A DNA stretch of 64,000 nt from a bacterium (GCA_017478515.1 JAFVDH010000004.1:172-64171); one strand, 5' to 3'. Shown: positions 50,254 to 63,839, counted from the first letter of the stretch. Numbers and translations are program-made. Notes: generated by a model from the letters alone, not told the origin.

Positions 50254-51732
50254 TTATTGATACATAACGTTCAAAAATTCATTGCTAACAGCATCTCTGT
50301 ACCATTTTGCATGGTCTGATGTGTTAAAAATATTGTTATAGTGGCTTGCAACATCGCCGTATGTAGATTTGTTTTCGCCGTATTCCATTAATTCGTGGGT
50401 ATTTTTAGCATATGGAGATGTTGGGAAAATGTCGTGCATCTGCATATAAGACGGCAATCTCCAACCTGCGTCACGATGTCCGTTAAACGCATTTTTAATT
50501 CTTGTTAATCTTTGCTCCAAAGACATTTGGCAATTATCATTATCGTCAGAAATTACAGGCCCTGCTGCGTATTCATCATTCCATGATTGTTTGTCATATT
50601 CATGAAGAATATTGTTAAAGTCGTCGGCTCTTCCCCAGTCGTTGCCTGCTGATAAACCCATTTCTCTGTTTCTTGGGTGCATATCGCATTTTTCGCCTAC
50701 AAGAGCTATGTCATTTCTTCCTGTTTTACTTTTTATTTGTTGAGTAATGTACTGCATTTGTTTGAAATTAGGAACTTCTCCAACTCCGCAGTAATAATGC
50801 ATTTCATGGTTTCCAACGTGCTTTGCACTGTCAAAGAATATTGCGTCAAATCCTAAGTCAACTGCCCAACAGCATGCATCTATAAATGCTTTTTCATGCT
50901 TGTACCAGTTAAAAGGTTCTCCTTTAACGGTCATTTGGCCTGCTGATAGAGGCATTCTGATACCTGTTTTTAATCCTCTTAAGTGAGCCATGTCATTAAA
51001 TGCTTTTACTTGTTCATCGTCACCCATTCTTTGTCCGTCACGGCAAAGCTTATCTGAAGTTAGATTTTTCGAAATTCCTGAATGCAAATCTACAGTATAT
51101 AGTGAAGAACGGCCTGTCTTTCCGTCATTTTCTCTGTTCATTGCAGGATATAATTGTGATAAAACTACGCAATTAGCAAAGCTTTTAGGTGATGGCGGGA
51201 TTGCAGGTAGTAATTTCATTACATTTAATAACCCCTCGCTTTTTTTGTCGCCTTCTGTTAATGCAACGGTTCTCGGGTTAATTTCTATATAATTTGCACG
51301 TCTTCCCCATTTGTCACCATAGTTTGGAGTTTGTATATTATTCGGAATTTCCGGATAATGGTCATTTTTCTTTGTTAATGTGCATATTGACTGAATGGCA
51401 TCCATTGGCGAGCGTTTCAAAAGATTTTCCGGGTTTTCGTTAACCCATTTTTTCCATCCTGTATTACCGCCTTTATATAATGTTTTGTATGTTTCCTGGT
51501 CTTCGTAAACATCATTGTTGCCTTTTAGTATCCAAAACAGTTTCTTGGCAGGGTTTTTATCTCCGTAGTATCCTTTAAAGTTTACTAATTGTTTGTTGTA
51601 ATTTGCAGAAAGTTCCAATGCTGATGCCGAAGTAGGTTTAACTGCTTTTGGTGCAATAGGATTTGAAGTCTTTTTGCTTATTACCGGCATTATGTTTGGC
51701 ATATACAAACTTTGGATTGCAGAAACTTTCAT
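50254..51732 (-). CDS. 492-aa protein with a divergent alpha-amylase-superfamily (GH13-like) core; N-terminus MKVSAIQS, no signal peptide
   Basis: GFDAIFFDSAKHV resembles GH13 region II (GFRxDxxKH). AHLRGLKTGIRMPLS resembles region I context. IALVGEKCD may be region III. The ORF itself is solid; the function call is weak. Confidence 0.45.
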   Translation of the reverse strand: MKVSAIQSLYMPNIMPVISKKTSNPIAPKAVKPTSASALELSANYNKQLVNFKGYYGDKNPAKKLFWILKGNNDVYEDQETYKTLYKGGNTGWKKWVNENPENLLKRSPMDAIQSICTLTKKNDHYPEIPNNIQTPNYGDKWGRRANYIEINPRTVALTEGDKKSEGLLNVMKLLPAIPPSPKSFANCVVLSQLYPAMNRENDGKTGRSSLYTVDLHSGISKNLTSDKLCRDGQRMGDDEQVKAFNDMAHLRGLKTGIRMPLSAGQMTVKGEPFNWYKHEKAFIDACCWAVDLGFDAIFFDSAKHVGNHEMHYYCGVGEVPNFKQMQYITQQIKSKTGRNDIALVGEKCDMHPRNREMGLSAGNDWGRADDFNNILHEYDKQSWNDEYAAGPVISDDNDNCQMSLEQRLTRIKNAFNGHRDAGWRLPSYMQMHDIFPTSPYAKNTHELMEYGENKSTYGDVASHYNNIFNTSDHAKWYRDAVSNEFLNVMYQ

Positions 51733-51769
51733 ACTTGGTTTAATGTCCCTAAAAATTTATATTGCCATG

Positions 51770-51796
51770 TTTTAGGCGTTTTTTTACAATACTTTA
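51770..51796 (-). promoter_or_regulatory. Weak sigma-28-like match TAAAGTAT-N11-GCCTAAAA upstream of the GH13-like gene
   Basis: -10 element matches 6/8. The downstream leader shares ggcaatataaa with cassette copy 2. Confidence 0.25.
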
Positions 51797-51930
51797 CAGT
51801 TGCTTTTACTCTTTGAAAAAAGCTTTTTTATTTCTTATTTACAACTGATGTGTTTAATATATTGTAAATACAATACTCTGAGAAATCAGGGAAGAGTGGA
51901 AACCTAAAGCCAGCCTTGCTTTGATAACAA

Positions 51931-52695
51931 TTGCTTATGCTGGCAAAATTTGTTGACGTGTTAAATACATCTATTGCAAATGTTGCTCTTAAATATATGG
52001 CAGGAAGTTTCTCTATTTCTGATGATGAAAGTCTTTGGATAGTAACAATTTTTTTTATATCATGCATCGTATTACTTCCTGAAACAAAGTGGTGTTGTAA
52101 AGTTTTTGGCAGAAAGAGGTTCTTTTTATTCTGTTTATATTTCTAAATTGGAACTTACCAGTTTAAGTTCATTTCTTTTGCTTTGGGTTGTTTTGTGTTT
52201 TTAAATTTAAATTTGATGTTTGCGTTTGGAAATGTTATAATTCCTAATTTGATTGTTTGATTGTTCTTTTTGTTATGACTATGATAATTATTCCTACGAT
52301 TACGATTATTTTTTTTTGATTTATCCAATCAAGAAATGGCAAATGCGTCTACTTTACAGAATCTTATTAAAAATGTAGGATGTGCCATCGGAACTTTGTC
52401 TGTATGTGTATTTGTATCTCGATATTCTAAGGTATACCAATCATATCTTGTCGATAAACTCTCTTTGTTAAATGATGCTTTTGTCGGAAAATTTACTGCA
52501 TTAGCAATGAATTTCGCTAAAAACGGAGCTGATTTTATATCTGCTCAAAATATGTCAGGTGCGATGCTTTATAACCAACTTATACAACAGTCGGCTCTTT
52601 GTGCATTTATGCATACTTATATGATTTATGCAATTATTATGCTGATTATTTCTGCTATGGTTTTGATATTAAAAAAAGTTAGGTATGATAATTAA
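51931..52695 (+). pseudogene. Decayed EmrB/QacA-type MFS efflux transporter (N-terminal ~70 aa and C-terminal ~120 aa survive; central TMs lost or scrambled)
   Basis: FVDVLNTSIANVALKYMAGSFSISDDESLWIVT..FGRKRFF matches the EmrB N-terminus. 52336..52695 matches the last TMs. The region between has stops in every frame. Confidence 0.7.
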
Positions 52696-52793
52696 AAAGT
52701 AAACATAATTGTGCATTGACAATGGAAATATTACTTAATACTAAAGAGCGTGTTAATGTTGTCCTGACTTCCAATTCTAAAACAGGAATTTTG

Positions 52794-53016
52794 TTAAGAA
52801 ATGTTACAAACTTGAAAACTGTTGTAAATACTGTAGCACAGCGATTTCTAATAAAATTGTAAACTTTTGTAAATATGGATTTTAAAATGGCTGAAACTCA
52901 GTTATAATCACCTATATGATATGATATGATATGATGGGATGGGGAGTACTAAAGCTTTTTGACCATATTGCCGACATGAAAAGTGTTAGGAATAAGGCAA
53001 TATAAAGGAGAAAACA
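52794..53016 (+). repeat. Upstream cassette copy 2 (homologous to 33341..33571)
   Basis: See copy 1. TATAAT at 52903-52908, pentamer tract at 52915-52944. Confidence 0.85.
52950..52977 (+). promoter_or_regulatory. FliA/sigma-28-like promoter TAAAGCTT-N12-GCCGACAT
   Basis: Same geometry as 33496..33523. Lies 39 nt upstream of the ATG at 53017. Confidence 0.45.
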
Positions 53017-62679: not shown

Positions 62680-62811
62680 AAATACCTACACTGATACATG
62701 TATTAAAAGTAGTTTTTACAATAAAAATTGCTTAATCTTAAAACAATATTAATATATGTGAATATAGTTTTAAGTGTTTAAGAAAGTGTAAAACAAATAA
62801 GTAAGTACGAT

Positions 62812-62849
62812 GCAAAAAAGGCGGGAACAATTTTATTGTTCCCGCCTTT
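62812..62849 (-). terminator. Rho-independent terminator (15-bp stem) for the 62875..63357 gene
   Basis: aaaggcgggaacaat-t-attgttcccgccttt, with a T-run on the minus strand. Confidence 0.8.
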
Positions 62850-62874
62850 GCTTTATTATCTGTCTTAATCCGAA

Positions 62875-63357
62875 TTAACGTCTGCCGTTGCGGATATTAT
62901 TAAGTTGTTGGTCAAATTCTTGAATTCGTCGTTGACCTTCAGCTCTGCCTTGTTCTCTTGCGTAATCAATTCTTTGATCTACGTTTTGAGGTATTAATGA
63001 TTCTGCTGTTTCAGGGTCATATCCTTGAGCAATAAGACGTTGAACAAGTTGAGCTCTTGTAACAGGGCCGCCTTCTTCGTCTTCTACAGCTTGAATTGCT
63101 TGGGCATATGTGTATCCTTGATCTACATAATATTTAATTCTTTCCATGTGGCTTTGAGTTTTTTGAGATGCTTCTTCTGCTGCTTTTTTTGTATTTTTTA
63201 TAAATTGCATTGAGCTGCTTTCACTTATATCATCATCAGAGCCACCGCCAAAAATATCAATATCTCTTGGGTCTTGTTCACTTCTGCCGTTTGTGCTTCC
63301 TGAACGATGAGAGCCATTTGTTCCTCCAACACCATTTACATTAAGATTAGGATACAT
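62875..63357 (-). CDS. Hypothetical 160-aa protein, Gly/Ser-rich N-terminus, helical C-terminal half
   Basis: AAGGAGG RBS, and a terminator downstream. Confidence 0.6.
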   Translation of the reverse strand: MYPNLNVNGVGGTNGSHRSGSTNGRSEQDPRDIDIFGGGSDDDISESSSMQFIKNTKKAAEEASQKTQSHMERIKYYVDQGYTYAQAIQAVEDEEGGPVTRAQLVQRLIAQGYDPETAESLIPQNVDQRIDYAREQGRAEGQRRIQEFDQQLNNIRNGRR

Positions 63358-63557
63358 TTTTACCTCCTTTATTTTTTATATCGCTACTTATTTATAATAT
63401 ACATTATGACATTGTCTATAATGTTTGTGAAAAAACTAAATTGCTTTATTACAAAAAAACATTTACATATTTTAATAAAGGCTTAATAAAATATTTTTCA
63501 TTTTGTAATTTAAGATCGAATTACACTTACTCTGTTTTTGATATTTTAATGTATCTT

Positions 63558-63839
63558 TTAACATTTCTTGTGTAAATTTATTTTTTCTTTTTCATAATCA
63601 AATTTTTGTATCATAAATATTTCCTTTATATCACCTTTATCACCTAATTATGTTCCTCTAAAAGAGATAAAAATTTCATCATTTTTATAAAATGCTTCAC
63701 AATGAAAACCTGTATTTTTGTTATCGTATTCATTTATTTTTATCTAATCTTTTGGAACATATTTTTCATTTCCAACATATACGCCAATGGAAAGATTTTT
63801 TAATTCATTATCAAAATCTAAGGTGTTATTCTTATGCAT
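63558..63839 (-). pseudogene. Truncated lipase class 3 / DUF2974-like alpha/beta-hydrolase fragment with two in-frame stops
   Basis: Minus-strand reading gives MHKNNTLDFDNELKNLSIGVYVGNEKYVPKD*IKINEYDNKNTGFHCEAFYKNDEIFISFRGT*LGDKGD... The TGF..AF....I.I.FRGT block is the lipase_3/DUF2974 N-terminal signature. No GxSxG follows. Confidence 0.4.

Follow-up and report, generated by a model that had tools for sequence, protein, structure and literature searches.

A block of signal-less and membrane protein genes in a gut Gastranaerophilales genome: lineage-specific families with candidate HLR1-type boxes rather than an acquired island

The window analyzed here is a 64,000-nucleotide stretch of DNA (GCA_017478515.1 JAFVDH010000004.1:172-64171; ~31% GC) from the genome of an uncultured gut member of the Gastranaerophilales (Melainabacteria/Vampirovibrionia), a non-photosynthetic relative of the Cyanobacteria. 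We examined the block at positions 50254-63839, which an earlier note made from the sequence (the original prediction) had described as an accessory neighborhood of effector-like hydrolases, orphan proteins, and decaying genes, and had taken for an island of effector or virulence type. Nearly all the genes that it listed are present where it had placed them, as judged by Pfam, profile searches, and six-frame reading. The left part of the window holds glycosyltransferases of the lipopolysaccharide core and other housekeeping genes; the orphan-rich stretch runs on to ~68.5 kb, where housekeeping genes resume. The block encodes a set of proteins in whose translations we read no Sec signal, namely a GH13-fold enzyme, a calpain-type protease, a second papain-like protein, a protein with an HExxH motif, and a small acidic protein. 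The rest consists of the membrane proteins DUF360, PAP2, and CstA, which are unrelated to each other, two decaying genes, and two genes with sigma-28-type promoters. Gene calls and Pfam searches revealed no secretion machinery and no mobile-element genes in the block, as the original prediction had remarked, and secretion machinery is missing up to ~68.5 kb as well.

The GH13-fold enzyme (A492, 492 aa) is encoded at 50254-51732 on the minus strand. It had no Pfam match and no sequence match in the Protein Data Bank (PDB). An AlphaFold (AF2) model built from 41 homologues reached a pLDDT of 84.5, and all 50 matches listed when the model was compared with the PDB by Foldseek were GH13 proteins (branching enzymes, pullulanases, and GlgE; best E 4e-9, TM 0.40-0.45). 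Residues 1 to 50 form a predicted disordered leader (MKVSAIQS...VNFKGYYGD; pLDDT below 50). In the 41 sequences, D301 (FFDSAKH), E347 (GEKCD), and D399 (DDNDN) are invariant, and the motifs around them resemble GH13 regions II-IV, a likeness of motif and not of structural superposition. The region-II motif reads F-F-D301 and not R-x-D, which places a phenylalanine two residues before the putative nucleophile, where an arginine is generally invariant in GH13. By its model A492 has the GH13 (beta/alpha)8 fold; it is not a demonstrated GH13 member because Phe replaces this Arg and no sequence model matches. An exhaustive profile search showed the family to be small (108 representatives among 1.84 billion); across the clade its members are 45-96% identical. 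The most distant homologues belong to other lineages and lack both the leader and a Sec signal, so that A492 was probably cytoplasmic in origin and the leader a lineage-specific addition.

Two further observations concern A492. Its gene has no Shine-Dalgarno sequence (SD), and a conserved -10-like TTTA(A/C)(T/A) lies 6-10 nt before the start codon in the window (51733-51800) and in 47 distinct orthologue sequences (L009-L078; the L numbers are our labels for the loci of relatives). The missing SD and the -10-like element so near the start codon suggest an mRNA that would be leaderless or nearly so across the order. Separately, several contigs of Gastranaerophilales type (L011, L012, L015, L022-L024, L070, L073, and L078), which encode proteins 45-80% identical to A492 behind the same promoters, are filed as metagenome-assembled genomes (MAGs) of Methanobacteriaceae, Eubacteriales, Anaerovoracaceae, Alistipes, Muribaculaceae, or Gammaproteobacteria; this filing probably reflects binning contamination or mislabeling.

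Calpain-like 1, a 564-aa protein with the leader MKVNSIQSVMPFLG...PSAETFQAMNGIKP, is encoded on the plus strand at 55810-57504, 55810 being the true start. It scored marginally against PF00648 (24.8 bits, cut-off 23.8), and its top PDB profile matches were the catalytic cores of calpain-9 and calpain-1 (E 9e-4). Across 37 sequences, with identities as low as 26%, Q214, C220, H469, and the N489-P-W motif never vary, and by these motifs the protein is a calpain-type (C2) cysteine protease with a predicted intact Cys-His-Asn triad. An identical protein is encoded on a 111.6-kb contig of a metagenome-assembled genome; all members of the family are unnamed or Gastranaerophilales, and the more distant ones carry the label Candidatus Gastranaerophilales. 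The original prediction had counted two calpain-like proteases; the first is thus borne out, while the second, calpain-like 2, can be followed at the level of motifs only. This 302-aa papain-fold or calpain-like protein (57933-58841, minus strand; QGSTAGDCWLLA ... DHAMSV ... VLDSY) has the motifs GDCWLLA and DHAMSV, and its third catalytic residue is apparently Asp. It scored 11.9 bits against PF00648, below the cut-off; an hhalign comparison with the family of calpain-like 1 covered 43 columns of the Cys region only (E 6e-4, probability 28%), and a PDB sequence search gave nothing significant. Its orthologues are 66% (L009) and 59% (L005) identical.

The HExxH protein (553 aa, 61018-62679, minus strand) belongs to a family of 127 clusters at 30-83% identity. 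Its AF2 model (pLDDT 87.9) starts with a disordered leader (residues 1-34), after which a long beta-sheet domain (132-357) separates a first helical domain from the helical HExxH domain; H423, E424, H427, D430, and E462 are invariant. No PDB fold matched the whole model, and no PDB or family sequence match was significant; the best profile match was the HExxH segment of anthrax lethal factor, at an insignificant E of 0.17.

Composition gave no sign of foreign origin. In GC, GC3, and codon-usage distance the genes of the block lie inside the range of the other 52 genes of the window, and its tetranucleotide correlation with the rest (0.984-0.989) is the same as among other 13-kb segments, so that a check for GC and codon skew finds it indistinguishable from its surroundings. 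Repeats of at least 14 nt of the tRNA-Arg gene were not found downstream up to 67.5 kb, and no att-like repeat was seen. A 268-aa tyrosine recombinase, 2.2 kb away from the tRNA-Arg gene, sits among housekeeping genes and is also kept in the sister species (L009); an integrative element built on these two was ruled out because att repeats are missing and housekeeping genes intervene.

We searched for the A492 gene, as an anchor, in a collection with one genome per species, and found 71 distinct loci, nearly all in Melainabacteria/Gastranaerophilales MAGs. The 492-aa, calpain-like 1, and HExxH families (1603, 81, and 127 clusters, respectively) are found across the Gastranaerophilales, and not in the patchy distribution that would be expected of island cargo. 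The only species-specific items in the block are the coiled-coil gene, the 53-aa gene, and the remnant of a transporter gene of the major facilitator superfamily (MFS). The label "accessory" is therefore wrong for most of the genes, because their families span the whole clade.

Gene order, by contrast with gene content, is conserved over a very short distance. A synteny table made by tblastn of the block proteins against the anchored loci showed the full block and its left flank (ferritin, STAS, SpoIIE phosphatase, and the recombinase) only in the sister species, where protein identities are 61-96%; a 5-kb contig (L008) has the anchor gene with the same left flank only. At anchor identities of 82% and below, the genes on either side are different in every genome. 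A conserved neighbor of the GH13-like gene was sought and rejected, the commonest neighbor family occurring in just 17 of the 71 loci. In other genera the 492-aa and calpain-like genes stand singly beside genes for glutamate dehydrogenase, alanyl-tRNA synthetase, ribosomal protein S20, and ATP synthase. Even the sister species differs in detail: the MFS remnant, the promoter cassette described below, the coiled-coil gene, and the 53-aa gene are all missing from it, segment 51733-54320 being absent as a whole, and it has instead a radical-SAM/SPASM gene between CstA and calpain-like 2. The presence of the block in relatives thus has two sides, clade-wide families and a synteny that reaches no further than the sister species. 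A horizontally acquired effector or virulence island finds no support in the native composition, the missing att repeat, the clade-wide families, and the housekeeping neighbors elsewhere, and that reading is wrong.

Footprinting of the upstream regions revealed a tandem repeat, TGT(A/T)A(A/C)-N3-6-TGT(A/T)A(A/C/T), 14-17 nt upstream of the -35 element of both sigma-70-like and sigma-28-like promoters. Read on the opposite strand, it becomes (G/T)TTACA-N4-(G/T)TTACA and matches the cyanobacterial HLR1, (G/T)TTACA(T/A)(T/A)-N2-(G/T)TTACA(T/A)(T/A), which is bound by the OmpR-type regulator RpaB (PMC6525291). The box of A492 (TTTACAATACTTTACAGT, one mismatch) lies at 51783-51800 on the plus strand, antisense to the gene, ~15 nt upstream of a TGGCAA -35, and a box at -66/-67 is kept in at least 16 A492 orthologues. 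With up to one mismatch to the published consensus, the window contains four sites against 0.9±1.1 expected: a perfect one at 52856-52873 (coiled-coil gene) and three with one mismatch, at 51783-51800 (A492), 33403-33420 (a 200-aa gene), and 23261-23278 (a 98-aa ORF). At the same stringency, 1.27 Mb of related DNA, made up of loci fetched with A492, gave 78 sites against 19±4 expected (~4-fold), 58 of which lie antisense and upstream of an ORF start, mostly of signal-less lineage-specific families.

The relaxed tandem box was found 10 times in the window against 3.4±1.8 expected, upstream of the 492-aa, coiled-coil, both calpain-like, and 200-aa genes and of the 98-aa ORF (23376-23672). At calpain-like 2 it lies at 58918-58935, upstream of the minus-strand gene, with two mismatches to HLR1. 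At calpain-like 1 a tandem TGTAAA-N5-TGTAAA (55713-55729) is followed by TGGCAA-N17-CTTAAAAT, the whole promoter region spanning 55713-55772 on the plus strand, and eight of eight orthologues keep both the first half-site and the -35 (T[AG]GCAA). In the related DNA there were 156 relaxed boxes against 69±11 expected; about 43 of the 49 hits in upstream regions precede signal-less lineage-specific proteins, the spacing to the start codon being alike in members of one family. These hits include 17 A492 orthologues (nearly all with the box at -66/-67), both calpain-like families, the 200-aa family, a flagellin-adjacent gene, giant proteins, and a peptidoglycan hydrolase of SLT type. The proposal of the original prediction that these odd genes belong together thus gains a cis-element, in its strict form at the GH13-like and coiled-coil genes but only in its relaxed form at both calpain-like genes.

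A candidate for the binding protein is encoded in the lineage. In L073 a 249-aa protein (11999-12748) scored 364.9 bits against the RpaB equivalog model NF045944 (cut-off 330), the next model being MtrA with 248.7 bits. Homologues of RpaB, RpaA, and NblS, of unknown role, were noted in Melainabacteria by Di Rienzi et al. in 2013 (PMC3787301). The boxes end 14-17 nt upstream of the -35 look-alikes, which would place their centers at about -58 to -61; in Synechocystis, HLR1 sites centered at -66 to -45 mark promoters activated by RpaB, and sites overlapping the transcription start site (TSS) mark repressed ones (PMC6525291).

Three side observations belong to these sequences. On the L073 contig a 79-aa ORF is preceded by an HLR1 site without any mismatch (TTTACATTTTGTTACATT). 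A 7-codon mini-ORF (MKTCVGR*, 55781-55804) sits between the predicted promoter and the start of calpain-like 1, its stop 5 nt before the ATG. The 98-aa ORF (MNNRKFKIQEQ...) lies in an otherwise empty intergenic stretch with its HLR1-like box ~100 nt upstream, and may be a further small member of the candidate HLR1 regulon.

The second regulatory element of the block is a promoter of sigma-28 type. The plus-strand gene at 53017-54162 encodes a 381-aa coiled-coil protein with three internal repeats, found only in contigs of the same species and belonging to no family. All its Pfam coiled-coil matches are below threshold; the name "FlxA-like" given by the original prediction reflects no homology, PF14282 reaching 12.0 bits against a cut-off of 26.3 within the coiled-coil segment. 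In front of it, at ~52750-53016 on the plus strand, lies a promoter and 5' untranslated region cassette (155-230 nt) that is ~90% identical to 33340-33571, upstream of the 200-aa gene at 33572, with the similarity stopping at the start codon. The shared promoter cassette of the original prediction is therefore real. It consists of the perfect HLR1 box (52856-52873), an (ATATG)4 repeat (52914-52933), and a sigma-28-type promoter at 52950-52977 (TAAAGCTT-N12-GCCGACAT; TAAAG-N16-GCCGACAT). The 200-aa family (MG[LMI]S..QARL..[LI]T.R; window gene 33572-34174) is conserved across genera, and seven orthologues have TAAAG(W3)-N11-12-RYCGWYAW at the same distance from the start. Since the sigma-28-type element is kept in these orthologues, we judge the 33.5-kb cassette to be ancestral and the 52.8-kb copy to be a promoter capture; the coiled-coil gene would then have entered the regulon by acquiring a copy of the promoter that drives a conserved 200-aa member of it.

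In both copies of the cassette, the stretch that separates the HLR1-like box from the sigma-28 -35 contains the (ATATG)4 repeat (33461-33480 and 52914-52933) and, after it, GGGATGGGGA; this insert was not seen in distant 200-aa orthologue promoters (e.g., L012, L017, and L030), and the exact 24-base cassette pattern had no match in JGI metagenomes. The N-terminal module of the 200-aa family also occurs fused to a calpain (PF00648) domain and an RTX repeat, in a 675-aa protein (L041, 5619-7646) with an orthologue in L045 (5612-7636). Members with the MG[LMI]S..QARL module all carry sigma-28-type promoters and HLR1-like boxes, and the family starts with an "MGxxxS" that is N-myristoylation-like in appearance only.

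We searched for the sigma-28-type pattern as TAAA(GTTT)-N11-12-GCCGATAA-like at a short distance from a gene, with TAAAG-N(15-16)-GCCGAYAW as the derived form. The window gave four matches against 0.8 expected, three of which precede the 200-aa, coiled-coil, and 53-aa genes by 39-54 nt. The 53-aa gene (57595-57756, minus strand) has the SD GAAAGGAG and the promoter TAAAGATT-N12-GCCGTTAA at 57811-57838, the whole unit spanning 57595-57838; tblastn found no homologue in L009, where a 49-aa ORF at that position is unrelated. The small ORF that the original prediction had called sigma-28-like is thus a real promoter-bearing gene, but it is this minus-strand one with a good SD, and the plus-strand 79-aa ORF with its match at 57579 looks spurious; that match overlaps the 3' end of the 53-aa gene, is at chance level, and was rejected. 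The intergenic stretch upstream of the 53-aa gene (57757-57932) also holds the palindrome TTGCATAAAAAATGCA. A promoter of the same type precedes a flagellin-adjacent gene in L042 and L044, with a similar element directly upstream of that flagellin (PF00669/PF00700), and others precede the giant-protein family and a 135-aa ORF just beyond the window. The flagellin of L044 (5172-6827; Flagellin_N and Flagellin_C) has a central insert with GLUG motifs that weakly matches the N-terminal region of M26 IgA1-protease.

No sigma-28-type element was found before the GH13-like, calpain-like, HExxH, or 160-aa genes. The hydrolase promoters are sigma-70-like, T[AG]GCAA-N17-18-TTTAAT, and conserved among orthologues; the idea of a special hydrolase promoter "T[AG]GCAA-N17-TTTAAT" was rejected, since its -35 is a variant of the housekeeping TTGCAA/TTGCAT at the ferritin, Bcp, and tRNA promoters and is not diagnostic. 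The flagellar-promoter link of the original prediction accordingly stands for the coiled-coil and 53-aa genes but fails for the hydrolases. Neither fliA nor any flagellar gene is present across the 64 kb of the window and a further 9 kb; relatives encode flagellin and hook genes. We infer that sigma-28 would read the TAAAG...CCGA promoters.

Taken together, these results point, with a probability that we put at roughly 60%, to a species-level gathering of vertically inherited, lineage-specific Gastranaerophilales genes, brought together by rearrangement and by gene gain and loss and co-regulated through RpaB/HLR1-type boxes, and not to an acquired island. The mechanism that we propose is that an RpaB-type response regulator of the OmpR family, retained in the lineage, would bind the boxes at an activator position and would co-control the signal-less hydrolases together with late flagellar-class genes. 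We further infer that binding by RpaB would co-activate the set and that the proteins would share a destination.

Several points weigh against this interpretation. The positions of the boxes relative to the TSS are deduced from -35/-10 look-alikes. At two mismatches HLR1 is not enriched in the AT-rich window (16 vs 16). The boxes of calpain-like 1 (spacer one longer), calpain-like 2 (two mismatches), and the 160-aa gene (a doubtful tandem TGTAAA with odd spacing) are relaxed matches only, and no clear box was found at the HExxH gene or the 53-aa gene. The RpaB equivalog comes from another genus (L073), and all the boxes are antisense to their genes, for a regulator that would bind as an asymmetric OmpR-type dimer. 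One heavily sampled family, A492, accounts for part of the enrichment, because the loci were fetched with it.

These points bear on an alternative that we regard as unlikely, in which the proteins are ordinary cytoplasmic enzymes, the leaders are disordered linkers or regulatory tails, the clustering is a by-product of genome shuffling, and the boxes are generic AT-rich, promoter-proximal elements resembling UP elements. A492 is conserved as strongly as a core enzyme would be (45-96% identity over the 71 distinct loci), its distant homologues lack any export signal, gene order is fluid on both flanks, the T[AG]GCAA -35 is merely a housekeeping variant, and HLR1 near-matches at two mismatches stay at chance level. 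Generic elements fit poorly, however, with matches at up to one mismatch that are ~4-fold enriched, oriented, at a similar distance in each family, and placed before signal-less lineage-specific rather than housekeeping genes; the same box at the same offset upstream of two promoter types, and the RpaB equivalog in the lineage, likewise speak against this alternative.

Three enzyme families of the block share a loosely conserved start. In the GH13-like, calpain-like, and HExxH families the first 34-60 residues keep M-x-[IV]-x-x-[IV], then [IV]-[SN]-F-x-[GS] near it or after a polar spacer, together with a short helix, and similar starts occur in several other families. In the A492 and HExxH models the leaders (34-50 residues) are predicted to be disordered, with pLDDT below 50, a feature that is not specific. 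The shared N-terminal tag of the original prediction thus exists, but it is weak: in a set of 2674 sequences cross-family matches of the leader hidden Markov models (HMMs) reached only E ~0.01-0.1, too weak for the HMMs to serve in pulling out further tagged families, and the association of M-x-[IV] with F-x-G (seven families vs ~2 expected, p = 0.002) concerns a pattern chosen post hoc. Starts of the form "MK[IV]" are moreover common in this AT-rich genome (126 of 1056 proteins). Reading "PSAELLxAxxG[IV]K" as a double-glycine leader of PCAT type was rejected, the residue before the predicted cleavage site being I or V and not G, A, or S. The leader can also be set beside the flagellin N-terminus (M-x-I-N-x-N), the clade's flagellin starting ...SINTNLSSL; the likeness is suggestive.

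Flagellum-secreted proteins co-expressed with flagellar genes exist elsewhere, e.g., the Fed/Cia proteins of Campylobacter. An effector-type island, whose tagged signal-less hydrolases would be exported by the flagellar type III apparatus and co-expressed with flagellar genes, would account for the disordered leaders and for the recurrence of the bipartite start motif in the GH13-like, calpain-like, HExxH, and other families. It would also suit the signal-less peptidoglycan hydrolases (CHAP and SLT) with similar F/N-rich N-termini near calpain-like genes in relatives, the two block genes with sigma-28-type promoters, and the flagellin and hook proteins of relatives, gut Melainabacteria having been reported as flagellated (PMC3787301). 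We nevertheless consider such an island improbable: the hydrolase promoters are sigma-70-like and not sigma-28, synteny, att, and composition checks revealed no island signature, the tag similarity across families is weak against a background of frequent "MK[IV]" starts, and the distant A492 homologues, which have neither leader nor Sec signal, suggest a cytoplasmic ancestry.

Export as such is plausible for the proteins of the block, and we hypothesize that the flagellar apparatus could provide the route. It is favored by the disordered leaders, the signal-less peptidoglycan hydrolases with similar N-termini, and the regulation shared with late flagellar-class genes, and it is weakened by the sigma-70-type hydrolase promoters and the cytoplasmic look of the distant homologues. 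In a wider form, on which we would place little weight, the RpaB-HLR1 circuit would predate the split of Cyanobacteria and Melainabacteria and, together with sigma-28, would drive signal-less GH13-like, calpain-like, HExxH, and peptidoglycan hydrolases that bear a lineage-specific bipartite leader and exit the cell independently of Sec, the flagellar type III apparatus being the most plausible way out.

Another route would run through the four-transmembrane protein DUF360 (PF04020, E 7e-28; 54321-54656, minus strand), which by name belongs to holin superfamily IV. Holin/endopeptidase systems export signal-less chitinases and toxins, and in a release of this type 10-like kind DUF360 would pass folded signal-less hydrolases across the inner membrane with the aid of signal-less peptidoglycan hydrolases. 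DUF360 adjoins calpain-like 1 in the window, L009, and L005, and in L005 and L006 CHAP or SLT enzymes without a signal are encoded no more than ~5 kb from calpain-like genes. The adjacency is, however, lost in L006, L013, L021, L081, and L082, being seen in three of eight contexts; gene calls and Pfam revealed no peptidoglycan hydrolase or spanin in the block, and PF04020 proteins are small, widespread membrane proteins for which a holin role has little documentation. Since the adjacency is not conserved, we hold this route to be very improbable.

The remaining genes of the block complete its description. A PAP2-family membrane phosphatase (PF01569, E 7.5e-17) is encoded at 54776-55711 on the plus strand; its gene is present in L009 and missing from L005. 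At 58982-60982, also on the plus strand, a CstA transporter (PF02554, E 1e-58) reads as an in-frame fusion to a 200-aa Sec-signal protein, the two (CstA having 466 aa) being separate ORFs in L009 and L005. The frame passes from one part to the other just past an A8 run (60361-60368), which lies 12 nt before an internal ATG (60380), and the other two frames stop (TAA or TAG) just before this ATG; the junction sequence is the same in four assemblies. The small acidic protein is a helical 160-aa orphan (...DIDIFGG...; 62875-63357, minus strand) with no family match, 76% identical in L009. The terminator of its gene is probably the GC-rich hairpin at 62817-62849, which has a T-run behind it on the minus strand, and a hairpin with a 19-bp stem (57527-57568) is a predicted bidirectional terminator between calpain-like 1 and the 53-aa gene.

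Six-frame reading revealed both decaying genes. A gene for an MFS transporter of DHA2/EmrB type (PF07690; 51886-52695, plus strand) has an N-terminal fragment with in-frame stops (~51886-52143; E 1.8e-8 against PF07690), a deleted middle, and a C-terminal fragment (52336-52695) 37-40% identical to intact genes in L040, L041, and L045. A Lipase_3/Mbeg1-like remnant with in-frame stops lies at ~63560-63839 on the minus strand, and gene calls and Pfam showed a second, frameshift-split copy just beyond the window. Two other repeats were seen elsewhere in the window: a 37-nt segment including the 5' end of tRNA-Asp recurs ~100 nt upstream (24343-24379 vs 24444-24480, 84% identical) and may be a tRNA gene fragment, and two tandem 87-nt repeats (44219-44388, 77% identical) lie inside the gene (44050-44568) for a 172-aa, lysine/threonine-rich Sec-signal protein.

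The block illustrates how a gene list that looks like an island can prove to be a vertical, co-regulated set. It also defines three uncharacterized order-wide families in a widespread uncultured gut lineage, namely a divergent GH13-fold enzyme, a calpain-type protease, and an HExxH protein without a PDB match, and the same families flag a possible non-Sec leader. Non-photosynthetic Melainabacteria have been noted since 2013 to retain the "photosynthesis" regulators RpaB and NblS without a known role (PMC3787301); the HLR1-type boxes, enriched, oriented, and fixed in position before a coherent set of lineage-specific genes, now supply a concrete candidate regulon. This suggests an RpaB circuit that began as a general switch for envelope, nutrients, or stress and came to serve photosynthesis later.

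Comparison with known systems places the hydrolases near established families, at some distance. A492 resembles the GH13 alpha-amylase family (branching enzymes, pullulanases, and GlgE) in its (beta/alpha)8 fold and its region II-IV-like motifs, but it differs in an identity of ~10%, a TM of just 0.40-0.45, the lack of a Pfam or PDB sequence match, the Phe in place of Arg, and the 50-aa disordered leader. Calpain-like 1 shares with calpains (peptidase C2, including bacterial calpain-like proteases) the QxxxGDC, HAY, and NPW motifs of a Cys-His-Asn triad; the similarity is confined to the regions around the catalytic residues, in contrast, a long insert sets the Cys and His regions apart, the N-terminal leader and N-domain are specific to the lineage, and no recognizable calpain accessory domains were found. 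The HExxH protein resembles HExxH zincins in an invariant HExxHxxD and a downstream invariant Glu, the weakest link being to the M34-type HEFGHAVD of anthrax lethal factor, a match that is insignificant; its helical/long beta-sheet/helical architecture is unmatched.

On the regulatory side, the TAAAG-N(15-16)-GCCGAYAW elements 39-54 nt upstream of the coiled-coil and 53-aa genes are like late flagellar promoters of sigma-28 (FliA), and the same type is found at a relative's flagellin locus. Unlike a late flagellar system, the block has this promoter at two genes only and not at its hydrolases, and the 64-kb window holds no fliA or flagellar gene. The HLR1/RpaB (Ycf27) regulon of Cyanobacteria serves photosynthesis and high-light genes, whereas the candidate targets here, read from sequence alone in a flagellated non-photosynthetic gut lineage, are signal-less hydrolases, small orphans, and sigma-28-class genes, and nearly all the strict boxes that precede genes are antisense to them. 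What the two have in common is the sequence and geometry of the box, perfect at 52856-52873, an RpaB equivalog in the lineage, and a predicted position upstream of the -35 that falls within the published activating range (PMC6525291).

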